From assembly GCA_041686025.1 (NCBI GenBank), contig JAWLEP010000003.1:17744-81743 (forward strand): 64,000 nucleotides of DNA, in the 5' to 3' direction. The DNA comes from Candidatus Fermentibacteraceae bacterium. GTDB taxonomy: Bacteria; Fermentibacterota; Fermentibacteria; Fermentibacterales; JCC-6. Shown one piece after another: positions 9,752 to 63,029 of this stretch. Every line of letters starts with the position of its first letter. The stretch's first letter is position 1. The translations under genes and the position numbers were made by a program. The notes below the pieces were generated by a model that saw only the letters and a program-made list of their open reading frames with translations, made no database searches and had not been told where the DNA came from.

Positions 9752-11032
9752 TCAGCCCCTGCGGTCGTCCGAACGTTTCCAGAACTGCAGGTCCGACTTT
9801 ATCTCGCCGCCCAGCTCTGCCCATCTGGACCAGGTCTCGGGCCTCTCCTGCTGCAGCTGGCGTACCCGCTCGCGAATGAACAGGTAGGCAACCACCAGAA
9901 GCAGTGCGGCGGCGAATACCTCCAGCCAGATGTAGAGCTTCTTGGGCTTGCTCTTCCAGCCGGGGTGCCTGGGGGGGTCAAGCATGCGGACGTTGGACTC
10001 GGTGCGGTTCTCTTCCACCATTGCCTGCTGGTAGTTCAGCGTGAGCATGCTGTGCATCTGCTGGGACATCTCCAGGTCGCTCTTGAACTTGATGTAGTCG
10101 AACTGGATCTCGGGCACCTCCCGTATGGAGACACCGCTGTAGAACTCCTCGTACCCGGGAGGAATGCGCCCCTCCTCCAGCATGCGGATGACCTGCAGAA
10201 GGGCGTCCGCCCGCAGCCCCAGCTCTCGCGAGGCGGTGGTGGGTCCTCCCAGGGCGGTCTCCATGGTCTGCGCCTGCGCCTCGGCCCGGAGGTAGTCGCT
10301 CTTCAGCTGGGCCAGGTTCTCGACAAAGGCCTGCAGCTCGGTCTCCAGGTCCACCAGACCGTGCTGCATCTCGAAGACCCTGAGGCTCTCGGCCGCGGCC
10401 ATCCTGATGCTGTCGGTGCGGGCCAGCTGCATCCCCAGGAACCTCCTGTCCGCAGCCGCCCTGCTGGTGTAGACGTCATCCAGTGTGCTGTCCAGCACCG
10501 CTACAACCCTCTCGGATATCAGCACGGAGTACATGGGATCGCTGGTGGTCATCTCGACCTCCAGGAATCCAGCCGGGGTGATATTGGCGGAGTAGTTCTG
10601 GCGGAACATCTTGCGGGCCCAGTACATACGCAGAATATCGTCGTCGGGGTAGGCCTCGGTGAGCTCGTTGCTGTCAGCGTAGGCCGTGGTCCTGATGACG
10701 TTCTCCACCAGGCTTCTGCTCTCGAGAATCTCCAGGTAGACGTCGGACAGAGTGGTCATAAGCGGCAGCGAGAAGCCCATGCCCCCGCTGAAGTACCCGG
10801 CGAACTCCGAGATCCCCAGGCCACCTATGCTGAGGCTGGGGCTGCTCCTCTCCTCCGGTGGCATGATCACCGTGGTTACCGTGAACTGCTCCTGCAGGAG
10901 ATAGGTGATGATCACCGTGGGAACCATTACCGCAAGCAGGGTCAGTATCAGGAACCATCGGTTCTTCAGCAGCACGTAGAGGTACCACGATGGCTTCCGC
11001 TCGGGGCGGATGCCGTCTCTCTCTGCGTCGGT
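9752..11032 (-). CDS. Polysaccharide chain-length determinant protein (Wzz/GumC family, no kinase domain)
   Basis: N-terminal TM (YLYVLLKNRWFLILTLLAVMVPTVIITYLL), a long periplasmic coiled-coil region, and a C-terminal TM (YIWLEVFAAALLLVVAYLFI). Start chosen at ATG 11032, 2 nt after the Wza stop, rather than 11104. Confidence 0.7.
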   Translation of the reverse strand, partial: TDAERDGIRPERKPSWYLYVLLKNRWFLILTLLAVMVPTVIITYLLQEQFTVTTVIMPPEERSSPSLSIGGLGISEFAGYFSGGMGFSLPLMTTLSDVYLEILESRSLVENVIRTTAYADSNELTEAYPDDDILRMYWARKMFRQNYSANITPAGFLEVEMTTSDPMYSVLISERVVAVLDSTLDDVYTSRAAADRRFLGMQLARTDSIRMAAAESLRVFEMQHGLVDLETELQAFVENLAQLKSDYLRAEAQAQTMETALGGPTTASRELGLRADALLQVIRMLEEGRIPPGYEEFYSGVSIREVPEIQFDYIKFKSDLEMSQQMHSMLTLNYQQAMVEENRTESNVRMLDPPRHPGWKSKPKKLYIWLEVFAAALLLVVAYLFIRERVRQLQQERPETWSRWAELGGEIKSDLQFWKRSDDRRG

Positions 11033-11034
11033 CA

Positions 11035-12243
11035 TCAGAATATGCTCTTCCACGCTATGACGACGCTGGCCACACCGGTGAGCACCGTAAGGTAGTCCTG
11101 CCACCAGACCAGCCCCGCCCTGGGCACCCGTATCACGGAGCCGGAGGGCACGCTTTGCAGCTCGTCTATGGAATATACCTCGCCGTCAGGTGTGACTATC
11201 TCGGTATCGTCCAGGTCGGCTTCGTCATCTATGCCTCCGGCGCTGGCTATGTAGTATCCGGCGTCCATTCCCGGCACGTATCCCTGGGGGCCCGGCATGA
11301 ACACATGCCCCGACACCATGACCGTCACCGACGCTCCGGGGCATATCAGCATGTCCCCCGGCATCAGCACCGGGTCCATCGAGTCGTCGTCCATGGGGGC
11401 GGGCAGCCTCAGCTCCCGCCTGCTGCTGTCCCGCCTCATGACGTAACATCGGGAGGGATGGGCCCATGGAGAAAGGCCCCCCGCCCTCTTCACAAGCTCA
11501 CTGGCCGTCTCATCCTCCCGGTAGGACAGGAACCCCCGGGTGCTGCCCTCCCAGCTGGTGTCGGCCTGGGCCAGGGGGGCTCCCGTCTGATAGATGTAGC
11601 GCAGGGAGACAGCCCCCTCCACGCCCACCTTGGGACCGGCGTAGGGCACGTTGATCACGTCCCCGGCGCCCAGCATGGGGTTTGCGCTCCATTCGCCGGT
11701 TTCCAGGTAGGCGGCCACGTCCACGTCAAGCGAGTCGCCCCCCCGCAGCAGGTAGACGCTGTCCCATGCGCCTCCATGGGATATCCCGCCCGCCAGCTGC
11801 AGAAGGTCCGAGACCCTGTCCGCGGCGGTTGAGGGATACAGTCCGGGCTTCACCACGTTGCCCGTCACCGACACCCGGAAGGTCCGCATTCGGGCAAGCC
11901 CCACCATCGGGGTGCCGCTGCGGAACCTCGCTTCGAAAGATCGCTCCACGAGGTCCACGGCCTCCGCGAGGGTCAGCCCCTCCAGGTCCACGGCTCCCAC
12001 CAGGGGGATCACCACGTAGCCGTCCGGAGTGACGGGGAGCTCCAGCCCCCCCTGAGACATCGAGTCGGACAGCTGCGTGGGCAGGCCGCCCTCTGCGGAC
12101 AGCCACAGGACATCGCCCGGCCCCACCTCGTAGCGCTCGGGGTCCACCGGGAATGTGAGCTCAGAGTTGGGGTATTGGTCACCCGGAAACTGGCCCAGCA
12201 GTGCGCCGAGCAGAAGCGTGCCTATCAGAGCTGCATTGGCCAA
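11035..12243 (-). CDS. Polysaccharide export protein (Wza/GumB-like, SLBB domains)
   Basis: Signal peptide MANAALIGTLLLGALLG. Poly_export/SLBB-type sequence (YEVGPGDVLWLS ... GDVINVPY ... GDMLICPG ... GSVIRVP). Confidence 0.75.
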   Translation of the reverse strand: MANAALIGTLLLGALLGQFPGDQYPNSELTFPVDPERYEVGPGDVLWLSAEGGLPTQLSDSMSQGGLELPVTPDGYVVIPLVGAVDLEGLTLAEAVDLVERSFEARFRSGTPMVGLARMRTFRVSVTGNVVKPGLYPSTAADRVSDLLQLAGGISHGGAWDSVYLLRGGDSLDVDVAAYLETGEWSANPMLGAGDVINVPYAGPKVGVEGAVSLRYIYQTGAPLAQADTSWEGSTRGFLSYREDETASELVKRAGGLSPWAHPSRCYVMRRDSSRRELRLPAPMDDDSMDPVLMPGDMLICPGASVTVMVSGHVFMPGPQGYVPGMDAGYYIASAGGIDDEADLDDTEIVTPDGEVYSIDELQSVPSGSVIRVPRAGLVWWQDYLTVLTGVASVVIAWKSIF

Positions 12244-12329: not shown

Positions 12330-13271
12330 CTAAATCAGTGATGCAACCATAAGGGCCTTGATGGTGTGCTTGCGGTTCTCCGCCTCGTCCCAGACCACCG
12401 AGCTGGGGCCCTCGATCACGTCGAAGGTCACCTCGTTGCCCTTCACCGCCGGCAGGCAATGCATGAAGAGGACATCCGGGTTGCCGGTCTGATCCAGCAT
12501 ATCGGCGTCCACCCTGTAGGGCTCCAGCAGGGCGATCCGCTCCTTCATCTGCTCCTCCTCGCCCATGGAGGCCCAGACGTCGGTGTAGATCACGTTGGCG
12601 CCCTCCACCGCGGCCTCCCTGTCTGAGGTGATGCGGATCTCGGCGCCGGAGCGGTCCGCCAGTCCCCGGACCGTCTCCACCAGCTTGCCCTCCGGGTGGA
12701 GCTCATCCGGAGCCAGCACGGTGCAGTTCATGCCCATCAGCGCCGAACCGATCATCAGGCTGTTGGCCATGTTGTTGCGGCCGTCGCCGGCGTAGACGAA
12801 GTCCAGCCCGGCCACGTCGCCCAGGTTCTCCTCGATGGTCATCAGGTCCGCCAGCACCTGGGTGGGATGGTAGAGGTCTGTGAGGCCGTTGAAGACCGGC
12901 ACACCCGAGTACTCGGCCAGCTTCTCCACCGTTGCCTGCTGGAAGCCCCGGAACATGATGCAGTCGAACATCCGGCCCAGCACCCGGGCGGTGTCCTCTA
13001 TGCTCTCCTTGGCCCCCAGCTGTATGTCGGAGCTGGACAGGAACACCGGACAGCCGCCCTCCTCGCCGAAGGCGGTCTCGAAGGCGCAGCGGGTCCGGGT
13101 GGACCGCTTCTCGAAAAGCATCGCCAGGGTCCGGCCCCGGAAGCGCTGCTGGAACTGCCCCGCCAGCCTCTCCGCCTTGAGCATGTGCGACAGGTCAAGC
13201 AGGTAGCGTACGTCCTCCGCCTTTAGGTCCAGAAGGGTGAGCAGGCTTCTTCCCCTGAAGTTCTTCGCCAT
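12330..13271 (-). CDS. argF: Ornithine carbamoyltransferase
   Basis: STRTRCAFE carbamoyl-phosphate-binding motif, HCLPA motif (FMHCLPAVKGNEVT), 313 aa. Confidence 0.9.
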   Translation of the reverse strand: MAKNFRGRSLLTLLDLKAEDVRYLLDLSHMLKAERLAGQFQQRFRGRTLAMLFEKRSTRTRCAFETAFGEEGGCPVFLSSSDIQLGAKESIEDTARVLGRMFDCIMFRGFQQATVEKLAEYSGVPVFNGLTDLYHPTQVLADLMTIEENLGDVAGLDFVYAGDGRNNMANSLMIGSALMGMNCTVLAPDELHPEGKLVETVRGLADRSGAEIRITSDREAAVEGANVIYTDVWASMGEEEQMKERIALLEPYRVDADMLDQTGNPDVLFMHCLPAVKGNEVTFDVIEGPSSVVWDEAENRKHTIKALMVASLI

Positions 13272-13405: not shown

Positions 13406-13987
13406 CTAGAAGATGTAGTAGGCTCCGGCCAGTATGTTCTCCGGAGCATAGGTGCGGTAGCCGCTGTAGGTCTCGTCGATGTCCTGTTCGCCGCCCTCCG
13501 TGGTGGTGGTAGCGCTGTAGTAGTGGATGCCGAACTCCGTGAACAGGGCAAAGCGCTCGGCCCCCGGAATCGCGAAGTCGATCCTCATCAGCGGTGAGAT
13601 GGAGTAGGCGCTGGTCTCCGGACCGTCTACACCGTCCGTCTCGGAAGAGGTCTTGGCGTAGATGATCTGCCCGCCGAAGCTGAACTCCGTGTTGGCGGGG
13701 TCTGCAACCAGGTAGTAGCCGGAGCCGCCGATTGCCCAGGTGCTCATGTCGTACTCATCCGTGCCGGGATCTTCCTCGTACGACAGCTTGTCGTAAGCCA
13801 GAAGGCCCTCCATGCGGAATGCAGGACTGACCATGGCGCCGAAGCGGAGCATCGGCATGCCCTCTGTATAGAGCGTGGCATCGGAGACGTAGTAGGGCAC
13901 AGGGCTTTGCTTGAAGCCCAGGGAGTAGCCTCCGAAGGCGGCACCTGCCAGGGCGAGAAGCGCGACGGCTGCAAAGATCCTCATCAT
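13406..13987 (-). CDS. Outer-membrane beta-barrel protein (OmpA/OmpW-like), predicted
   Basis: Signal peptide MMRIFAAVALLALAGAAFG. Alternating amphipathic beta-strand pattern and a C-terminal aromatic (…GAYYIF). Start moved to 13987. Confidence 0.5.
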   Translation of the reverse strand: MMRIFAAVALLALAGAAFGGYSLGFKQSPVPYYVSDATLYTEGMPMLRFGAMVSPAFRMEGLLAYDKLSYEEDPGTDEYDMSTWAIGGSGYYLVADPANTEFSFGGQIIYAKTSSETDGVDGPETSAYSISPLMRIDFAIPGAERFALFTEFGIHYYSATTTTEGGEQDIDETYSGYRTYAPENILAGAYYIF

Positions 13988-14136
13988 TCCTTCCCTCCTC
14001 AAGGTTGTGAGAATGATCTCGGGGATAGAATTAACCAAAGCTCACCATGCGTCAATGGGGCTAATGGGCGATGCGTGAATAATCCGTCACAGGGAGCGGT
14101 GGCGCCTCCCGCCGATACGACGGGAGGCGATGGGGG

Positions 14137-15231
14137 CTATTCGGTAGCGGTGAAGAGCCGCAGCCCGTTGATCTCCTGGTACTCGTAGCTGAAGGTGACT
14201 CCGCTTACCGAGGGGGCCTCGGGGTTGGCCTCGACCCCCTCCACCAGGAGCTTCACGTAGTTGCCCTGGGGGGTCTGGCCGAAGATCAGGCCGTCGGTGA
14301 CGGCGGCGATGGAGTCGGAGTAGGCCGCCGGGTCTTCGGGGGCCACTGCGGAAGAGCCCGTGCCGTCGGCCATGGGGCAGGCCGTTCCCTGGCCCACCGG
14401 CGGAGCGCTTCCCGAGAACAGGGCCGCCGGCTCCAGCGCGGACGTGTGGCAGTAGACGTGGTAGTTGCCGTCGGCGTAGTCGTAGCTCAGGCTGGGCACG
14501 CAGGGGTTGAGGTACATGCCCACCGGGTAGCCGTCGGGGACGTCCTCCTCCCACAGGGTATAGGAACCCTCGCTGAGGGCGGGCATGGTGGAGGCTTCCT
14601 GCGAGCGGGCCGACTGGCCCTCGGCGTCGTTGGTCCTCACGGCGTAGAGGCCGGCGGACTGCGCCGTGTGCGTGTACTCCGTTCCCTCCACGGCCTCGGC
14701 CACCGTGTTCCAGCTGCCGGAGCTGTCGGCGTCGAACTCCACATCGTAGGACTCCGCGTCGGGGACCGCGGTCCAGCGGACCGTCACGGACGTCCCGGAG
14801 GAGGAGCCGGCGTCTACCCACACACTGTCTGGAGCGGCGGTGGATGTGTGGCTCACCGTGAGGACGCCGTCGCTGTAGTCGGACTCCTCGTAGCCGCCCT
14901 CGCGTATCACGCCGCGCACCCAGTAGTCGCCGGCGGGAAAGGTGGCGCAGTCCCAGTTGAACCCCGTCTGCTCCACACCCAGCGACTCGGCGATGAGCAC
15001 CAGGCCGCTGGTGGGATCGAGGTCGGTGTCCACGTAGATGTTGACCCACGCGTCGGCCCAGCCCTCGGTGTCCAGCGTCCACTCCACGATGTAGCTCTCG
15101 TCGGCGGTGGCCCCTCCGGCCGGGGGGGCGGTGATGGTGATGTCCAGGTCGCTGCCGGTGCCGCCGCAGGATGCAAGGAGAAGGGAGACAGCTGCAACCG
15201 CCGGGGTTGCTATGGCCGGCACGGCCCTCAC
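14137..15231 (-). CDS. Lipoprotein with fibronectin type III-like domain; paralogue of the 16117..16983 gene
   Basis: Lipobox LLLASCGG. Fn3-like block VTVRWTAVPDAESYDVEFDADSSGSWNTVAEAVEGTEYTHTAQSAGLYAVRTND aligns with IVLTWTAEEDAEEYEVYFKTTSGGNWSAVETTSNTTFTHTNATSAGYYSVRAKD in the paralogue. Shared C-terminal …YEYQEINGLRLFTATE. A GTG start at 15231 forms a GTGA overlap with the upstream stop; the alternative ATG is at 15261. Confidence 0.5.
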   Translation of the reverse strand: MRAVPAIATPAVAAVSLLLASCGGTGSDLDITITAPPAGGATADESYIVEWTLDTEGWADAWVNIYVDTDLDPTSGLVLIAESLGVEQTGFNWDCATFPAGDYWVRGVIREGGYEESDYSDGVLTVSHTSTAAPDSVWVDAGSSSGTSVTVRWTAVPDAESYDVEFDADSSGSWNTVAEAVEGTEYTHTAQSAGLYAVRTNDAEGQSARSQEASTMPALSEGSYTLWEEDVPDGYPVGMYLNPCVPSLSYDYADGNYHVYCHTSALEPAALFSGSAPPVGQGTACPMADGTGSSAVAPEDPAAYSDSIAAVTDGLIFGQTPQGNYVKLLVEGVEANPEAPSVSGVTFSYEYQEINGLRLFTATE

Positions 15232-16028
15232 AGGCCCTGCTGCCTCAGCAGCTCGTTCCACATCATGGAGAAGGCCAGCTCGGCCTTGCCCCTACAGCAG
15301 GGGTCCTCCGCCACGGCCACCAGCCCTACCCTGGACCCGTCGGGCATCATGCCTATGGCGGCGATGGACTCGCCGTCCTCCTCGTACGCGGGCACCCCGT
15401 AGGCCACCACGCCCTCCAGGTTGCGCAGCACCTCGGGGCCGCGGGGGAAGCCGGAGTGAAGAGCCCTTCTTATACCGGGGTAGTCCAGACCCTCACCCAG
15501 GATCTCCACCATGCTCAGCATGTCGTCGATGCTGGAGGTGCTGGCCTCCACCTCCGGGGCCCCCGGGAAGTGCATGCGGAAGTCCGTGTAGTCCGTGTCG
15601 TCGAGGCTTCTCTCCGTCAGCCAGCTCTCGAACCGTTCGGCCCCTATGAAGTAGTGGAGGATGATTCCCGGGTCCGCCCGGCCCTTCATGTTCTCGGCGA
15701 GCAGGTAGGAGATCGTCTGGCCGCCTCCGGGAACGTCATCCAGAGCGATCTCGCCGCGACGGAGCAGGTCCACCGCGCAGGCTGCCAGCACCAGCTGCGG
15801 GTTGCCGAACTTCACGGGCCCGGTCTCTCCTGCGGTAAGCCTCTCGCCCGTTGCCAGGTCCACCATCCCCACCGCCATCTCGGCGCCCCCGATGTTCGCC
15901 GCATCGTTGACGGTGGACTCCATGCCGGAGAGGATGTCCGAGGAAACCGCCGTATCGGGCCCCTCGTCGAATATGGACCCCTGGCCAATGAGAGCGGCCG
16001 CTGCGATTGCCAGCAAAGCGATACTCAT
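15228..16028 (-). CDS. Secreted class-A beta-lactamase-fold protein lacking the catalytic SxxK (predicted non-catalytic)
   Basis: Signal peptide MSIALLAIAAAALIG. The segment ETGPVKFGNPQLVLAACAVDLLRRGEIAL aligns with TEM [27 protein letters not shown] but has NPQL where STFK belongs. The SDN position reads AEN. C-terminal MPDGSRVGLVAV aligns with GPDGKPSRIVVIY. Confidence 0.5.
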   Translation of the reverse strand: MSIALLAIAAAALIGQGSIFDEGPDTAVSSDILSGMESTVNDAANIGGAEMAVGMVDLATGERLTAGETGPVKFGNPQLVLAACAVDLLRRGEIALDDVPGGGQTISYLLAENMKGRADPGIILHYFIGAERFESWLTERSLDDTDYTDFRMHFPGAPEVEASTSSIDDMLSMVEILGEGLDYPGIRRALHSGFPRGPEVLRNLEGVVAYGVPAYEEDGESIAAIGMMPDGSRVGLVAVAEDPCCRGKAELAFSMMWNELLRQQGL

Positions 16029-16048
16029 CGTTCTCCCCTGTTCGCATC

Positions 16049-16082
16049 GGGCCCCGCCGGCCGCTGGCGGCCGGCGGGGCCC
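16049..16082. repeat. Perfect 16-bp GC-only inverted repeat (hairpin) in the intergenic region between the lipoprotein paralogue and the beta-lactamase-fold gene
   Basis: GGGCCCCGCCGGCCGC-tg-GCGGCCGGCGGGGCCC, exact complementarity. Lies 34 nt downstream of the 16117 stop and 20 nt upstream of the 16028 start on the minus strand. No U-tract follows. Confidence 0.5.
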
Positions 16083-16116
16083 TCCTGTGCGGGGATGCTA
16101 TCCCCCCGGACTGACG

Positions 16117-16983
16117 CTAGTTGCTCTTGGTGGTGAAGAGCTGTATGCCCTCGCGGTCCTGGATCTCGTAGTGGAGGTCCACCTCGGTGCCGTTGTCGCT
16201 GCCCGTGTAGGGCGAGACATCGTCCACGAAGACCTTGGCGAAGTAGTCGCCTTCCAGCTGCAGTATGAAGATGTCGCCGCTGGCCAGGTTGGAGGTGTAG
16301 GAGCCGATGTTGCTCTCGGGGTAGCCGTAGGTGCTTCCCGGGCTCCAGAAGACCGTGGTGTTTCCACCCTGTGCCGGGCTCATGTCGCCGGAGCGGAAGA
16401 GGACCTCGGTGTCGCCCTTGCCCTCTTCGTAGGCGTAGATGTCCTGGTTGAAGTCGGCGCTGTAGGCGGATCCCGTCTCGGCGCCCTCGAATCCGAAGAA
16501 GATGCCGCTGGGCAGATCCTCGGCGGCGTAGTTGTCGTAGATGGTGTAGCCGGTGGAGATCTCGATGGGCATGGTGTTCACCGCGGAGGCGTACTCCTCG
16601 GAGTAGTTGTCGCCGTCCTTGGCGCGTACCGAGTAGTAGCCGGCGCTGGTGGCGTTGGTGTGGGTGAAGGTGGTGTTGGAAGTTGTCTCAACCGCGCTCC
16701 AGTTGCCGCCGGAGGTGGTCTTGAAGTAGACCTCGTACTCCTCGGCATCCTCCTCGGCGGTCCAGGTGAGGACGATGTCACGGCCGTCGGAGGCGTCCCA
16801 GTCGATGGACAGGCCCGTTATCTGGGGCAGCGTGCCTCCGCCGCCGCCGGGGTCGTCGCCCTCGCAGCCGACCATTAGCACGACAGCGAGTGCCGTAAGC
16901 AGAATTGCGTACTTCTTCATGAATGCTCCTCTCTTCGATGTTGGTGTCACTTCGGACACATAGCAAGATAGCTCCACCCCCAT
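16117..16983 (-). CDS. Lipoprotein with fibronectin type III-like domain; paralogue of the 14137..15231 gene
   Basis: Lipobox MKKYAILLTALAVVLMVGC. Fn3-like block and C-terminus (…HYEIQDREGIQLFTTKSN) shared with the paralogue. Confidence 0.55.
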   Translation of the reverse strand: MGVELSCYVSEVTPTSKRGAFMKKYAILLTALAVVLMVGCEGDDPGGGGGTLPQITGLSIDWDASDGRDIVLTWTAEEDAEEYEVYFKTTSGGNWSAVETTSNTTFTHTNATSAGYYSVRAKDGDNYSEEYASAVNTMPIEISTGYTIYDNYAAEDLPSGIFFGFEGAETGSAYSADFNQDIYAYEEGKGDTEVLFRSGDMSPAQGGNTTVFWSPGSTYGYPESNIGSYTSNLASGDIFILQLEGDYFAKVFVDDVSPYTGSDNGTEVDLHYEIQDREGIQLFTTKSN

Positions 16984-16995
16984 ACCCTGTCAAAC

Positions 16996-19386
16996 CTACC
17001 CGCCGGCGCCATCGGGGTTCCCCCCAAGTTCCTCCAGGGCGTGCTCGGCCGCCGAGCGGACATCCAGCTGCGGGTCCCCGGCCAGCTCCAGCAGCAGGGG
17101 AACCGCGGTGCTGTCCCCGATGGCTCCCAGGGCCGCCGCCACCCGGGTCCTCACCCGGGAGGAGGAATCCCGGGCCAGGGGCACGATGGCGGCAATGGAG
17201 GCCGGCTCACCTATCCGGCCCAGGGCCTCCACAACGGTGGCCCGCAGGCCCACCTGGAGGCTGTCGTCCAGGGCGTCCTCCAGGGCCGGCCGGCCCGAGG
17301 CCTCACCCATGCGGCCCAGCAGCCAGGCGCAGTTGCCCCGCACCCTGGCGGCCTCCGAGGCCAGCAGGCTCTCCGCCAGCGCCGGCAGGGCCAGCCGGGC
17401 ATTCTCCTTCAGCGCCGACTCCATGGCCCGCAGCTCCAGGCCGTCCCAGGCGTTCAGGCGCTCCCCGAGGATGTACGCCACCGCTTCCTCCCCCCTGCGG
17501 CCCAGCTCCCGGCGGTGGGCCAGAACCCTCTCGCGATTCTCGGCCACCGCCCACTCAGCGGCCACCTCGAACAGGGAGTCCAGCTCCAGGGAGCCGGGGT
17601 CCCCGATGGGGTCATCGGCCAGGCTGTCCGGGGGGCTGCTGCGGGGTAAGTCGGCCCCCACGCCGTAGCTGGGAAGCCTCCACAGCTCGCCGCCTCCGGG
17701 CCCCAGGAAGCGGTCGTCGTCGGCCAGGTCCAGGAAGACGGCGGCCCCTCCGAAGCCGCGGCGCCATGGTGCCTCCCCCTGCCCGCCCCCCGCTGCGGCG
17801 TAGACGTCGTCACCGCCCAGGTCTGCGAAGATGCAGGCGGAGTTGGTGAGGGCCAGGGCCTGGCCGCCGTCTGCGCAGTACCAGTCGTCGCCGCCTGCGT
17901 CCAGCAGGAAACCCGTGGAGAGGTCGTGGGCGCTGCCCTGCGCCGGTCCCCGGCGGGAGACGTAGACGTCGTCGCCGCCGCCCTCCCATAGGCAGCCGGC
18001 GGCCAGGTGTATCCCCGAACCCTGGCTGTACTGGGCGGCGGTGTAGCTGTCCTGGCCGTCCTGGTCGTAGAGCATTCCCAGGCCGTAGAAGTAGGCGGCG
18101 CCCTGTCCGAAGACCTCCGCCCGGTAGGTGTCGTTGCCGGAGCCCAGGTCGGCCAGGAGCCCCACGCCCCCGGCCACGAAGGGCCGCAGGCCCATGGCGA
18201 AGCCCTGGGACATGGCCCGGTGGTCCTCACGCAGCAGCGGCTCGTGGGGGTAGCGGAATCCCGCCAGGTAGGAGTCGTGGCCGGCCCGGTCACACAGTGT
18301 GCCCCGTCCGGCGGGGCCCCCGAAGCCCTGCCCGAAGGCCGCCACCCTGTAGGAGTCGTCACCCCCGGCGTCCAGCAGGTCGCCCCTGCCCATCATGGCC
18401 GCCCCCTGGGACATGTAGTCGGCGCGGTAGGTATCGTCGCCTTCGAGGTCGGCCAGCAGGCCCTGGCCCGCCAGGCCGCACCCCTGCGAGAGGGCTCCGG
18501 CGGTGTAGGTGTCGTCGCCGGCAAGGTCCACCAGCACTCCCAGGCCCCCGAAGCCCGAGCCCTGGGCACCGGGCAGCTCGGTCAGGTAGCGGTCGTCGCC
18601 GGCCAGGTCCACCACCACGGCCACGAACCTCCCCGCAGGTGCGGCCGCCGCGGCGCAGTGGCCGCGGTAGGTGTCGTCGCCCCCGATGTCGATGATCAGG
18701 TCGAAGCCTCCGGTGTAGGTGTTGGGTCCGGGTCCGCCGATCACCCAGCTCACGGGGCCGGCGGTGTCGAAGTCGGCCACCGCGCCCTCCACCCCGGGAG
18801 CGCGGAGCTCCGCCTCCGGCCAGCGCACCTCCCCCAGTTCAAGTGCCAGGCACGTGAACGTGTCGGGGTCCAGGGAAGGGGGGACCGGCCACCGGGACAG
18901 GAGGCCGGCCAGCGAATCGGGCTCCACCTCCGGGCCGACGGGCTCGGCCAGGCCCCAGGAGCGGTGCAGGGCCCCGGGGGAGCCCCACTCCCCAGGGGCG
19001 TCCCCGTCGGCGAAGACCACCGGCAGCAGGCAGGCCAGGGTGTCCCCGGCCCCGGCTGCGGAGTCGAAGGCGGCGGAGTAGGCCTCCGCCCGCTCCTCCA
19101 GCAGCAGCAGCAGGTCGGCCATGGGGTCGTCTCCCCCGTAGCTGGCGCTGCCGTCCGGAAGGGCCGACACCTCGCCTGAGAGGATGGCGGGAAGGGAGTG
19201 AATGTCCGTGAGGGCCTTCAGGACCGTGGAGTCCGGAAGGGCTACCCCCCGGGACCAGTGGCGGTCGAAGTTCATCTGCCCCCGGGTGATGTCCAGGGAG
19301 TCCAGGCAGACCGTCAGGGCGGAGTCCACCTCGGCCGGCAGCTGAGGGGCCGGGGCCAGGGCGGCGATCAGAAGGGCTGTGAGCAT
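16996..19386 (-). CDS. Large secreted protein: 12 tandem GDDxY beta-roll-like repeats followed by C-terminal HEAT (PBS-lyase-type) repeats
   Basis: Start set at the internal ATG at 19386 (MLTALLIAALAPAPQLPAEV, signal peptide), preceded by GGGAGGACAG. The 285 codons upstream in the track ORF run antisense to thiM and the riboswitch. Repeats of the form IIDIGGDDTYRGH, VVDLAGDDRYLTE, LVDLAGDDTYTAG, LADLEGDDTYRAD, LLDAGGDDSYRVA and so on, each followed by an xSQGxG segment. C-terminal HEAT repeats (…VRTRVAAALGAIGDSTAVPLLLELAGDPQLDVRSAAEHALEELG). Confidence 0.6.
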   Translation of the reverse strand: MLTALLIAALAPAPQLPAEVDSALTVCLDSLDITRGQMNFDRHWSRGVALPDSTVLKALTDIHSLPAILSGEVSALPDGSASYGGDDPMADLLLLLEERAEAYSAAFDSAAGAGDTLACLLPVVFADGDAPGEWGSPGALHRSWGLAEPVGPEVEPDSLAGLLSRWPVPPSLDPDTFTCLALELGEVRWPEAELRAPGVEGAVADFDTAGPVSWVIGGPGPNTYTGGFDLIIDIGGDDTYRGHCAAAAAPAGRFVAVVVDLAGDDRYLTELPGAQGSGFGGLGVLVDLAGDDTYTAGALSQGCGLAGQGLLADLEGDDTYRADYMSQGAAMMGRGDLLDAGGDDSYRVAAFGQGFGGPAGRGTLCDRAGHDSYLAGFRYPHEPLLREDHRAMSQGFAMGLRPFVAGGVGLLADLGSGNDTYRAEVFGQGAAYFYGLGMLYDQDGQDSYTAAQYSQGSGIHLAAGCLWEGGGDDVYVSRRGPAQGSAHDLSTGFLLDAGGDDWYCADGGQALALTNSACIFADLGGDDVYAAAGGGQGEAPWRRGFGGAAVFLDLADDDRFLGPGGGELWRLPSYGVGADLPRSSPPDSLADDPIGDPGSLELDSLFEVAAEWAVAENRERVLAHRRELGRRGEEAVAYILGERLNAWDGLELRAMESALKENARLALPALAESLLASEAARVRGNCAWLLGRMGEASGRPALEDALDDSLQVGLRATVVEALGRIGEPASIAAIVPLARDSSSRVRTRVAAALGAIGDSTAVPLLLELAGDPQLDVRSAAEHALEELGGNPDGAGG

Positions 19387-19495
19387 CTGTCCTCCCAAGC
19401 TGGTTGCCGGGGCTGCGCGGGCATTAGATAACGCCGGCAGATGCCGCGGGCCAGCCCGAGGTTGACCCGCCCGGGGGGGGCTGCATACCTTCGAT

Positions 19496-19584
19496 GCGGG
19501 ATTGGGGGTGGCCGGGCGGTGGCCCGACCTGAGAGCATACCCCGGGAACTTGAACCGAGTAATGTCGGCGGAAGGAAATCCCTC
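19496..19584 (+). ncRNA. TPP riboswitch (THI element) in the thiM 5' leader
   Basis: GGGGUG, GCCcgaCCUGAGA, ACCC, GAACuUGAaCCgaGUAAUgucGGCGgAAGG consensus blocks. P1 stem GGGAUU (19498-19503) pairs with AAUCCC (19577-19582). Downstream CCUCC segment can pair with the thiM SD GGGAGG. Located 47 nt upstream of the thiM ATG. Confidence 0.7.
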
Positions 19585-19630
19585 CGGGCCTCCCGGCCCG
19601 GGTTTCCTCCGCCTCTGACAGGGAGGCGAG

Positions 19631-20437
19631 ATGTCCGACCCCGTGATCGAGTACGCCGCAGACAACCTGCGCGAGCTGCGCGAGACCGGCCCCATGATCC
19701 ACCACATCACCAACAGCGTGGTGACCAACTTCACCGCCAACATCACCCTGTGCCTGGGAGCGGCCCCCGTGATGGCCCCCTGCGAGGAGGAATCGGCGGA
19801 GATGGCCGGATTCGCCTCCGCGCTGATTCTGAACATCGGGACCCTGGACCCGGCCCTGGTGCAGAGCATGCTGGCGGCCGGGCGGGCGGCCAACGACAGG
19901 GGCATTCCGGTGGTCCTGGACCCGGTGGGGGCCGGCGCCACCGCCCTGAGGACCGACTCCGCCCGCATGCTGGCCGACCAGCTGGAGATAGCCGTGGTCC
20001 GGGCCAACGCCGGCGAGGCCCTCACGCTGGCCGGGGAGTCGGGCCGGGTGCGGGGAGTGGACTCCCACGACAGTGTGGAGGGCCGCGGCGAGGCGCTCCG
20101 GGAGCTGGCCCGGGAGCTGGGCTGCGTGGTGGCGGTAACCGGCCGCGAGGACGTGGTAACCGACGGCAGCCGGGTGATCACCTGCCGCAACGGCCACTCG
20201 GTTATGGGCCGGGTGACCGGCACCGGGTGCGGCGCCACCACGGCGGTGGCCTGCTTCTGCGCCGCGGGTGAAGATGTGATGCTGTCCGCGGTGTCCGGCC
20301 TGGCCTGCTACGCGGTGGCCGGGGAGCTGGCGGGAAGGGATGCCGCCGGACCCGGCAGCTTCGTTCCCGCCTTCCTGGACCGCCTGGCCTCCCTGGACGC
20401 GAAGACGCTCCGGGAGAACGCCAGGATATCGGGATGA
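19631..20437 (+). CDS. thiM: Hydroxyethylthiazole kinase
   Basis: 268 aa with the ThiM signature IHHITNSVVTNFTANITLCLGAAPVMA. Overlaps thiE by 4 nt. Confidence 0.9.
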   Translation: MSDPVIEYAADNLRELRETGPMIHHITNSVVTNFTANITLCLGAAPVMAPCEEESAEMAGFASALILNIGTLDPALVQSMLAAGRAANDRGIPVVLDPVGAGATALRTDSARMLADQLEIAVVRANAGEALTLAGESGRVRGVDSHDSVEGRGEALRELARELGCVVAVTGREDVVTDGSRVITCRNGHSVMGRVTGTGCGATTAVACFCAAGEDVMLSAVSGLACYAVAGELAGRDAAGPGSFVPAFLDRLASLDAKTLRENARISG

Positions 20438-60799: not shown

Positions 60800-60875
60800 T
60801 GGCGCTCCCACGGGGACTCGAACCCCGGTTTCCGGCGTGAGAGGCCAGCGTCCTAGACCACTAGACGATGGGAGC
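60800..60875 (-). tRNA. tRNA-Glu (anticodon CUC)
   Basis: Reverse complement GCTCCCATCGTCTAGTGGTCTAGGACGCTGGCCTCTCACGCCGGAAACCGGGGTTCGAGTCCCCGTGGGAGCGCCA folds as a cloverleaf: acceptor GCTCCCA/TGGGAGC, anticodon loop CTCTCAC, T-arm CGGGG-TTCGAGT-CCCCG, encoded CCA. Close in sequence to E. coli tRNA-Glu. Confidence 0.85.

Positions 60876-62936: not shown

Positions 62937-63029
<93 letters not shown>

Follow-up and report, generated by a model that had tools for sequence, protein, structure and literature searches.

A probably exported protein of Candidatus Fermentibacteraceae that joins an Asp-rich beta-solenoid with turns of about 27 residues to HEAT repeats

Introduction

A stretch of 64,000 nucleotides from a Candidatus Fermentibacteraceae bacterium (contig JAWLEP010000003.1; hereafter the window) encodes on its minus strand a protein in which a long series of Asp-rich motifs precedes a HEAT array. 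The locus raises the question of what fold these motifs build, where the protein is located, and what it may do. A first-pass annotation had read it as a secreted protein with 12 tandem GDDxY-type repeats, resembling an RTX-like beta-roll or parallel beta-helix and capped by PBS-lyase-type HEAT repeats. Among known Ca2+-dependent solenoids, region IV (RIV) of MpIBP is an atypical RTX beta-roll with a 19-residue repeat, XGTGND-XUXU-GGXUXG-XUX, whose XGTGND turns bind Ca2+ along a single edge, and RTX repeats need high Ca2+ outside the cytoplasm (PMC6891781). Here we describe the gene, its predicted modules and its relatives, and weigh what the protein may do.

Results

Gene and start codon

The complete coding sequence (796 amino acids plus the stop codon) occupies positions 16996–19386 of the minus strand, the reading frame running from the ATG at 19386 down to 16996. 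The mechanically defined open reading frame extends to a GTG at 20241 and thereby adds 285 codons ahead of this ATG; these codons are antisense to thiM (19631–20437, plus strand; NCBIfam equivalog, 314.8 bits) and to a TPP riboswitch (19494–19593, plus strand), the latter scoring 52.8 bits, just below the gathering score of 54.3. The same Met is the first residue of a 796-amino-acid homologue with 98% identity and of more than 100 full-length homologues; therefore, the gene is real, and translation starts at the ATG at 19386 rather than at the GTG at 20241. A Shine-Dalgarno sequence, GGGAGG, was read directly from the sequence at 19391–19396 of the minus strand, 4 nt 5' of the ATG. Both the downstream start and its strong ribosome-binding site had been proposed in the first-pass annotation. 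Genes for lipoprotein, OMP-like, Wza-like and Wzz-like products lie downstream on the same strand, an envelope-related setting, and there was no paralogue of the solenoid-HEAT protein within the window.

Three predicted modules

An AF2 model built with a 52-sequence alignment (pLDDT 86.2, pTM 0.81) consisted of three parts, a helical N-terminal domain, a solenoid at residues ~200–580 and a HEAT array. A protein made up of an N-domain, a solenoid with a repeat of ~27 residues and a HEAT module is thus a description in which we have high confidence, and it agrees with the beta-roll or beta-helix capped by HEAT repeats suggested earlier.

The first 20 residues (19327–19386, minus strand), MLTALLIAALAPAPQLP, form a hydrophobic segment that AF2 modelled with low confidence at residues 1–8. 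Because this segment has a hydrophobic h-region without a basic n-region, we regard it as a probable, atypical Sec signal peptide. More distant homologues from WOR-3 and Latescibacteria carry classical signal peptides, such as MKKVILLTVLIAG and MRKNYLVVCCLLFVVSISYA. The signal peptide claimed previously is thus only probable, favored by the hydrophobic N-terminus and the distant homologues but lacking the basic n-region. These sequence features suggest that the protein is probably exported, to either the periplasm or the surface.

Residues 21–195 (18802–19326, minus strand) were all-helical in the full-length AF2 model, where the mean pLDDT was 70–97 in 15 of the 17 ten-residue blocks and 69 in the other two; modelled alone, the domain gave a poor pLDDT of 63.5. 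It contains the conserved motifs F-D-R-H-W and L-W-A-D-E-D. There was neither a Pfam match at E≤10 nor a significant PDB profile match (alignment A3) for this domain.

The beta-solenoid and its repeats

In the AF2 model, residues 200–580 (17647–18789, minus strand) formed a right-handed, single-stranded beta-solenoid of ~13 turns. Each long strand ends with an acidic residue (D233, D260, D287, D313, D339, D366, D413, D441, E468, D496, D522, D553 and D579), followed in twelve turns by x-x-G-[DN]-D-x-[YF]; a degenerate motif, G-P-N-T-Y, is found at residues 220–224. Between residues 236 and 560 there were 12 [GDSA]-x-D-x-[YF] motifs, as compared with a mean of 0.58 and a maximum of 4 in 2000 shuffles, which bears out the 12 tandem repeats of the first-pass annotation. 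The predicted spacing of 22–24 residues did not hold, as the motifs are 26–28 residues apart, with two exceptions of 31 residues and of 48 residues, the latter at a 20-residue loop insertion. Autocorrelation of the residues gave peaks at lags of 26–27 and then 53–55, and Tandem Repeats Finder detected a repeat at the DNA level (18419–18623, minus strand) with a 78-nt (26-residue) period, 2.6 copies and 73% matches. The periodicity was seen with both of these methods, and the Q-G ("SQG") segments reported earlier to interleave with the motifs were found between them.

When the 12 repeats of 52 sequences were pooled, the most constant positions of the profile were D(+2) at 100%, G(0) at 93%, D(-3) at 89%, Y(+4) at 83% and [DN](+1) at 72%, and positions -1 and -2 were variable. 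The solenoid contains 43 Asp and no Lys and has a net charge of -33. Judged from the sequence, a ladder of Ca2+ ions along one edge of the solenoid is somewhat favored.

A 20-residue loop is inserted in turn 7 (residues 375–405; 18172–18264, minus strand; alignments A1 and A2). Its sequence, A-G-F-R-Y-P-H-E-P-L-L-...-M-S-Q-G-F-A-M-G-L-R-P, is kept among close relatives and includes R401; the pLDDT was below 50 at residues 379–388.

Relation to known solenoids

The closest structural match, with similarity of fold, was RIV of MpIBP (MpAFP), the ice-binding RTX adhesin of Marinomonas primoryensis (PDB ID: 3p4g), followed by tail fibres, Vag8, SRRP, TibA, Hap and EtpA. The present solenoid shares with MpIBP RIV ~12–13 stacked turns, a very acidic composition and a G-[ND]-D-x-hydrophobic corner in each turn, in which G-[DN]-D-x-U corresponds to positions 4–8 of the MpIBP motif. 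However, its turns comprise 26–28 residues as compared with 19, the ~8 extra residues per turn include the Q-G motif and make up an additional side, and neither the second Gly nor the Thr of X-G-T-G-N-D is conserved. At 14% identity, no relationship is detectable at the sequence level. Moreover, whereas MpIBP is a 1.5-MDa T1SS adhesin, this protein has an N-terminal signal peptide, of the probable kind described above, and a HEAT array.

With canonical RTX proteins (HemolysinCabind, PF00353) the solenoid has in common the G-x-D-x-U half of the repeat and an expected Ca2+-dependent folding outside the cytoplasm, but there was neither a 9- or 18-residue periodicity, nor the GG at positions 1–2, nor a C-terminal T1SS signal. 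HemolysinCabind was not matched by the whole protein at E≤1 or by the solenoid alone at E≤10, in line with the earlier statement that the canonical GGxGxDxUx nonapeptide does not fit. The multi-turn, right-handed fold is shared with the parallel beta-helix superfamily, which includes pectate-lyase-like lyases, AlgG/AlgE4 C5-epimerases, PL6 lyases, phage tailspikes and autotransporter passengers. There was, however, no sequence match to Beta_helix (PF13229), NosD or pectate-lyase families, and the regular Asp-rich turn motif and conserved residues are unlike those of any of these groups. The solenoid had no Pfam match at E≤10, no NCBIfam match and no PDB profile match at E≤10. The check proposed in the first-pass annotation, a comparison with PDB and enzyme families, thus assigned the solenoid profile (alignment A2) to no known enzyme family or PDB entry. 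For the N-domain and solenoid together (~580 well-conserved residues), no relative was found in Pfam, NCBIfam or PDB.

A conserved strip in turns 7–12

Conservation was examined by hmmalign in 148 cluster representatives sharing ≤50% identity, with the register set by hand from the sequence. Outside the scaffold positions, the conserved residues were R401, Y432, W/F433, Y453, Q455, H460, H487, D488, N515 and R543; all of these except Q455 were conserved at ≥90% (position 433 as W433). They lie within residues 401–543 (17758–18186, minus strand), that is, in turns 7–12, and each follows a Q-G motif except Y453 and Q455. Such polar and aromatic residues, kept throughout the family, suggest a ligand site, and we consider the strip a candidate ligand or active site. 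Given the in/out alternation of the strands, H487 and N515 may face the core, where their role would be structural and not functional. A site for a ligand or glycan in turns 7–12 is proposed only tentatively.

The HEAT module and its linkage to the solenoid

Residues 600–790 (17017–17589, minus strand) are HEAT-like helical repeats of the PBS-lyase/alphaRep type, with ~6 helix pairs. Scores exceeded the Pfam gathering thresholds for HEAT_2 (71.6 against 27.7 bits), HEAT_PBS (44.5 against 20.9), HEAT (41.4 against 23.5) and HEAT_EZ (33.2 against 27), as expected from the C-terminal HEAT array annotated before. E-values for the C-terminal 190 residues ranged from 6.7e-20 (Pfam) down to 4.7e-33 (alphaRep chains), and a Foldseek comparison with PDB gave HEAT matches only. 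CpcE/F, NblB, alphaRep designs, E. coli YibA and MTH187 are of the same HEAT_2/PBS-lyase type, but here the HEAT module is attached to a beta-solenoid and is probably exported.

The HEAT module is fused C-terminally in most family members and N-terminally in P0207. Four distinct HEAT-less loci were examined in which the downstream flank was on the contig; in three of them (L088, L094 and L095) HEAT_2 repeats are encoded by a gene of their own, which overlaps the solenoid gene at its stop codon. One HEAT-less homologue has no adjacent HEAT gene. Since the two modules occur either in one polypeptide or as products of neighbouring genes that overlap, they probably work together. The fusion had been thought unusual for an exported protein; it is instead the usual arrangement in a large family.

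Distribution and genomic context

The homologue search recommended in the first-pass annotation revealed a family of at least 3,466 clusters at 50% identity. A scan of 185,579 species, each represented by one genome, confirmed relatives at no fewer than 343 genomic sites. They occur in Fermentibacterota, WOR-3, Zixibacteria, Cloacimonadota, Latescibacterota, Gemmatimonadota and others, mostly uncultured lineages. Members are named only as "hypothetical" or "HEAT repeat" proteins, and ten diverse representatives were "hypothetical protein" or nameless. In the literature on Fermentibacteria HEAT-repeat proteins and on periplasmic beta-helix plus HEAT proteins, we found no description of the family.

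Throughout Fermentibacterota (39 loci) the gene is divergent from riboswitch-thiM-thiE, and in three loci (L004, L005 and L063), which share a distant homologue and its neighbouring genes, the homologue overlaps a thiamine pyrophosphokinase gene. A functional link to thiamine was considered and rejected in favor of lineage synteny, since no thiamine gene was found near homologues in other phyla. Clustering of the open reading frames at 45–53 loci outside Fermentibacterota gave no generally conserved neighbour; the recurrent ones were Metallophos plus CBM9 genes (7 loci), sigma54 activators (7), an M42 peptidase (4) and KdtA (2). Therefore, the context gives no functional anchor. At locus L001, two ABC-exporter-type genes (ABC_membrane plus ABC_tran) are located ~3–7 kb upstream of a close homologue, in a part that corresponds to the window beyond thiE.

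Discussion

We propose that the protein is exported to the periplasm or surface and is built of three modules, an N-domain, a right-handed solenoid and a HEAT array. One corner of each turn would be a D-x-x-G-[DN]-D-x-Y turn like those of RTX proteins and MpIBP, and the stacked Asp/Asn residues of successive turns would coordinate Ca2+ ions in one row on one edge, with about one ion for each turn. Without Ca2+ to neutralise it, the Asp ladder would be untenable, so that folding would depend on Ca2+ outside the cytoplasm. The strip in turns 7–12, by the inserted loop, would be a binding site, possibly a catalytic one, for an extended ligand, most likely a glycan of the envelope or of the extracellular space, by analogy with other beta-helix lyases and epimerases, and the HEAT module may dock to other proteins and tie the solenoid to a partner. 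As a whole, this combination of an exported Ca2+ solenoid, a ligand site and HEAT docking is the best explanation we have, with an even chance of being correct.

The reading that competes most directly with it is a structural or adhesive rod, stiffened by Ca2+ and without catalysis, that would serve as a rigid spacer or adhesin, comparable to MpIBP RIV or autotransporter passengers, with the strip as a patch that binds proteins or surfaces and the HEAT module as an envelope anchor. The closest structural match is indeed a non-enzymatic adhesin domain (3p4g), and sequence searches detected no enzyme family, including carbohydrate-active ones. However, the His, Asp, Asn and Arg of the strip are ≥90% conserved in the 148 very diverse representatives, with a conserved loop nearby, a pattern that fits a catalytic or specific small-ligand site better than an adhesin surface, since such surfaces usually vary; in addition, no surface-anchor or secretion domain (autotransporter barrel, T9SS C-terminal domain or T1SS signal) was found. 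We regard such a rod as a possible but doubtful explanation. A canonical RTX protein exported by type I secretion would account for the Gly/Asp-rich repeats with G-[DN]-D-x-U and for an RTX-adhesin domain being the closest fold, but the solenoid matched neither HemolysinCabind nor any other Pfam family at E≤10, the period is 26–28 rather than 9 or 18, the N-terminus is signal-like, and the C-terminus is HEAT, not a T1SS signal. There was also no membrane-fusion or TolC-type gene among the downstream window genes scanned or among the genes called around the homologue in L001, which does carry the two ABC-exporter-type genes. This explanation is very improbable.

An ice-binding or antifreeze function is scarcely credible despite the likeness to MpIBP. 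The ice-binding face of MpIBP is made of the Thr and Asx of X-G-T-G-N-D; here the equivalent Thr position is not conserved, positions -1 and -2 vary, the repeat has 27 rather than 19 residues, and no source gives any family member an ice-binding name. It is also highly unlikely that the protein is a cytoplasmic HEAT protein akin to E/F-type bilin lyases or NblB, with the hydrophobic N-terminus as a buried helix. The presence of HEAT_PBS, weak NCBIfam matches to NblB and CpcE, and the missing basic n-region would suit such a protein, but NblB reached 38 bits and CpcE 17.2, far below their respective cut-offs of 300 and 330, the organism is a non-phototrophic member of Fermentibacteraceae, and distant homologues have classical signal peptides of the cleavable type. 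Furthermore, 12 Asp-rich RTX-like turns stacked into a ladder should require the high Ca2+ of an extracytoplasmic location, as is established for RTX repeats (PMC6891781).

Going beyond the proposal of an exported Ca2+ solenoid with a ligand site, we suggest, with considerable reserve, that the solenoid founds an undescribed family, defined by a 27-residue D-x-x-G-[DN]-D-x-Y / Q-G repeat with a one-sided Ca2+ ladder and conserved across FCB-group candidate phyla. With its obligate HEAT partner it might act in the periplasm as an enzyme or receptor of a new type, whether a new class of polysaccharide lyase or epimerase or a pilus or secretion factor, to name examples, with a His-His-Asp-Asn-Arg active site. 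Nothing known is overturned by these results: beta-solenoids are common, and so are HEAT repeats. If the proposal is true, 27-residue repeats would be a third geometry beside the 18- and 19-residue Ca2+-dependent solenoids of the RTX type. The conserved strip and the linkage between solenoid and HEAT module provide two hypotheses open to experiment, and a definition of the family would improve the annotation of uncultured lineages.

Gene model and repeats of the solenoid-HEAT protein

The solenoid-HEAT ORF was located on the minus strand, from an ATG at window position 19386 to a stop codon at 16996–16998, and encoded 796 residues, with a Shine-Dalgarno-type GGGAGG on the same strand 4 nt 5' of the ATG. 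The mechanical ORF was 285 codons longer, up to a GTG at 20241, and this extension was antisense to thiM (19631–20437, plus strand; NCBIfam hydroxyethylthiazole kinase, 314.8 bits) and to a TPP riboswitch (19494–19593, plus strand) upstream of thiM-thiE. The same Met start was found in a 98%-identical 796-aa Candidatus Fermentibacteraceae protein and in more than 100 other full-length homologues. Because of the antisense thiM and riboswitch and the homologues with the same Met, the start, Shine-Dalgarno sequence and antisense extension proposed in the first-pass annotation proved right. The riboswitch was absent from the default scan because its score, 52.8 bits, was just under the Rfam gathering score of 54.3; it covered the full model (1–105) without the variable P3 extension, and lay in the same 244-nt intergenic region from which the solenoid-HEAT gene is read in the opposite direction. 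The sole Rfam matches in the window reaching the gathering threshold were tRNA genes at 60803–60875 and 62940–63029 on the minus strand.

Residues 236–560 contained 12 [GDSA]-x-D-x-[YF] motifs, against a mean of 0.58 and a maximum of 4 in 2000 shuffles, spaced in order by 27, 27, 26, 26, 27, 48, 27, 27, 28, 26, and 31 residues. Residue autocorrelation peaked at lags of 26–27 and then 53–55, and Tandem Repeats Finder independently detected a 78-nt (26-codon) array at 18419–18623. The 12 tandem repeats seen at the first reading were thus real and their periodicity was detectable by software, with a period of approximately 27 residues instead of the 22–24 aa originally given. When the 12 repeats were pooled over 52 homologues and numbered from the central Gly (position 0), the profile consisted of G(-7), a hydrophobic residue, L, a hydrophobic residue, D(-3) (89%), and two variable positions, followed by G(0) (93%), [DN](+1) (72%), D(+2) (100%), a variable position, and Y(+4) (83%), and then by a variable position, [AS], about five residues, and a Q-G motif. 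There was a degenerate first copy, G-P-N-T-Y, at residues 220–224, and a 20-residue loop (residues ~376–402), strongly conserved in closer relatives, was inserted in turn 7.

Predicted structure and comparison with known folds

The AlphaFold2 model, built from the 52-sequence homologue alignment, was confident (mean pLDDT 86.2, pTM 0.81) and predicted a short hydrophobic N-terminal helix (residues 1–10, low confidence), an all-helical domain (~18–185), a beta-solenoid (~200–580), a disordered linker (581–593), and six helix pairs (600–788). The solenoid had 13 long strands, each with an acidic last residue: D233, D260, D287, D313, D339, D366, D413, D441, E468, D496, D522, D553, and D579. It contained 43 Asp, 9 Glu, 19 Arg, and no Lys residues, giving a net charge of -33. 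The C-terminal HEAT array was borne out by matches above the Pfam thresholds to HEAT_2 (71.6 vs 27.7), HEAT_PBS, HEAT, and HEAT_EZ, and by matches to alphaRep chains with E-values down to 4.7e-33.

Residues 1–640 matched no Pfam or NCBIfam model. Neither the N-domain alone nor the solenoid alone had a Pfam match even at E ≤ 10, the solenoid profile had no match in the PDB at E ≤ 10, and the N-domain profile gave nothing significant there. At the sequence level, the solenoid is like nothing described. Membership of a described beta-helix family was rejected, as there was no Pfam, NCBIfam, or PDB sequence match to the solenoid, and a canonical RTX protein was rejected on the lack of a Pfam match at E ≤ 10 and the period of ~27. 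In a review on RTX domains (PMC6891781), region IV of the Marinomonas primoryensis RTX adhesin (MpIBP; PDB ID: 3p4g) is treated as an atypical beta-roll whose 19-residue repeat reads XGTGND-XUXU-GGXUXG-XUX; the turn that binds Ca2+ is made up of the first six residues, like that of canonical RTX, and the ions are found on one edge only. Compared with this motif and the RTX nonapeptide GGxGxDxU, the solenoid G(0)-[DN]-D-x-Y corresponded to positions 4–8, whereas the leading GG (or G-T) was replaced by D-x-x, and each turn was ~8 residues longer than in 3p4g; the initial description as RTX-like without the canonical nonapeptide was therefore accurate. From the fully conserved Asp, the extreme negative charge, and a stack over 12 turns to which each turn contributes two or three side chains of acidic or amide type, we infer that the solenoid binds Ca2+. 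Overall, the gene and repeats of the original observation were confirmed and its repeat period was not, and its structural interpretation was supported by the predicted solenoid and HEAT domain and by the likeness to RTX-type turns.

Distribution of homologues and linkage with HEAT

A word-indexed search retrieved more than 2,700 relatives, all named 'HEAT repeat domain-containing protein' or 'hypothetical protein'; full-length relatives with 47–98% identity were from Fermentibacteria and Aegiribacteria, and longer ones (920–960 aa, 34–43% identity) from WOR-3 and Latescibacteria. An exhaustive HMMER search with residues 1–610, leaving out the HEAT domain, against 1.84 billion 50%-identity cluster representatives found 3,466 representatives at E ≤ 1e-3 and 1,595 at E ≤ 1e-30; the core that they shared was the solenoid (residues ~200–580, 40–48% identity). 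When a single genome of each species was scanned, 343 genomic sites were confirmed to carry relatives, and Cloacimonadota, Gemmatimonadota, Edwardsbacteria, Sabulitectum, and Hydrothermus were also represented among the 80 best. Another search, started from a member lacking HEAT, gave many 570–690-aa forms from Zixibacteria, Eisenbacteria, Calditrichaeota, Gemmatimonadetes, GN15, and WOR-3; no Pfam domain was present in any of them, and every named one was 'hypothetical'.

The HEAT domain was usually C-terminal, and N-terminal in homologue P0207. Four distinct HEAT-less loci had the downstream flank on the contig (the contig of L091 ended right after the gene). At three of these (L088, L094, and L095), a separate 312–346-aa HEAT_2 gene was directly 3' of the solenoid gene, its start codon overlapping the solenoid stop codon; the fourth, seen on two contigs (L092/L093), had no adjacent HEAT gene. 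Two modules that are fused in some genomes and translationally coupled in others provide classic evidence of functional partnership, and this pattern in the sequences indicates that the solenoid and HEAT belong together. A PDZ domain was fused in P0266, and one cluster of three members (P0245/P0269/P0270, 1265–1267 aa) carried a complete RibD (deaminase and reductase) at the N-terminus of the solenoid-HEAT protein, which may be gene-calling read-through or a true fusion.

Genomic context

Downstream on the minus strand were genes for a lipoprotein with a weak GH85_C/Fn3-like match (16117–16920), a 266-aa protein (15228–16028), a ~374-aa protein (~14137–15261), and an OMP-like protein with a weak OMP beta-barrel match (13406–14038), none of which had a Pfam match above the family cut-off or an NCBIfam match, followed by an aspartate/ornithine-family carbamoyltransferase gene (12330–13271). 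A Wza-like gene (Poly_export and SLBB; 11035–12243) and a Wzz-like gene (Wzz/GNVR chain-length determinant; 9752–11104) lay on the same strand ~5–7 kb downstream of the solenoid-HEAT gene; a Latescibacteria homologue (L006/L007) also had a Wzz/GNVR gene ~7 kb downstream. Across Fermentibacterota, the order thiE-thiM, divergent solenoid-HEAT gene, lipoprotein gene, 266-aa gene was kept in 33–39 loci, the lipoprotein, 266-aa, and ~374-aa genes were syntenic with the solenoid-HEAT gene in 33–38, and 17 loci had the OMP-like gene. There was no terminator-like site between the solenoid-HEAT and lipoprotein genes. The only sigma-70-like promoter match in 15000–19700 was TTGACA-17-TATCTT (16965–16993, minus strand); as it lies immediately after the solenoid-HEAT stop codon and upstream of the lipoprotein gene, the latter may have its own promoter.

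Outside Fermentibacterota no neighbour was general; Metallophos+CBM9 was upstream in seven loci, and sigma54 activators occurred in seven and KdtA in two. In five independent loci of other phyla (L003/L058, L048, L049, L056, and L095), the 6 kb upstream of the homologue contained between one and three prepilin-type genes with G-F-T-L-I-E N-termini, accompanied in L003 and L095 by a sigma54 activator; a connection with pili or type II secretion may be hinted at here. A thiamine pyrophosphokinase gene adjoined the homologue in three loci (L004/L005, 7327–8004; L063), with its stop codon overlapping the homologue start codon by 4 nt. This lineage, binned as 'Alphaproteobacteria', is probably another phylum, and the overlap brings the family next to thiamine genes for a second time, independently of the Fermentibacterota thiM-thiE; it was not seen in other phyla. 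The context is compatible with an envelope role, without defining one.

Conserved residues, probable export, and proposed function

When 148 diverse cluster representatives were aligned to the solenoid profile, positions conserved in at least 90% were mostly repeat Gly, Asp, and Tyr. The non-scaffold exceptions were R401, Y432, W433 (Phe in the window protein), Y453, Q455, H460, H487, D488, N515, and R543, all of which except Y453 and Q455 were among the eight residues following the Q-G motif in turns 7–12, beside the conserved inserted loop, and therefore had a similar register on six consecutive turns. From the in/out alternation of this register, worked out by hand from the sequence, W433, H460, and D488 should face outward, and H487 and N515 may point toward the core.

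The N-terminus of the window protein, MLTALLIAALAPAPQLPAEVDS, had a 10-residue hydrophobic core without basic residues and acidic residues after the core, and homologues of other phyla began with classical signal peptides (MKKVILLTVLIAGIGSG, MRKNYLVVCCLLFVVSISYA-FE, and MKILFTYAVLLSTLIASQRAVA-SE), suggesting that the solenoid-HEAT protein is probably exported. The known folding of RTX-type turns at the Ca2+ concentrations outside the cytoplasm (PMC6891781) likewise points to export.

The solenoid-HEAT protein, whose HEAT part is of the HEAT_PBS type, is not a bilin lyase. The conserved strip appears to resemble the grooves in which beta-helix enzymes bind their ligands or carry out catalysis. 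In the reading we propose, the solenoid would be stabilised by Ca2+, the strip would form a ligand groove, probably for a glycan, and HEAT would serve as a docking module; the main alternative is that the protein is a non-catalytic adhesin or scaffold. The solenoid-HEAT protein belongs to a large family that is unannotated and whose members are probably exported, each with a helical N-domain, a 27-residue-repeat, acidic solenoid with an RTX/MpIBP-like turn, and a fused or adjacent HEAT partner.
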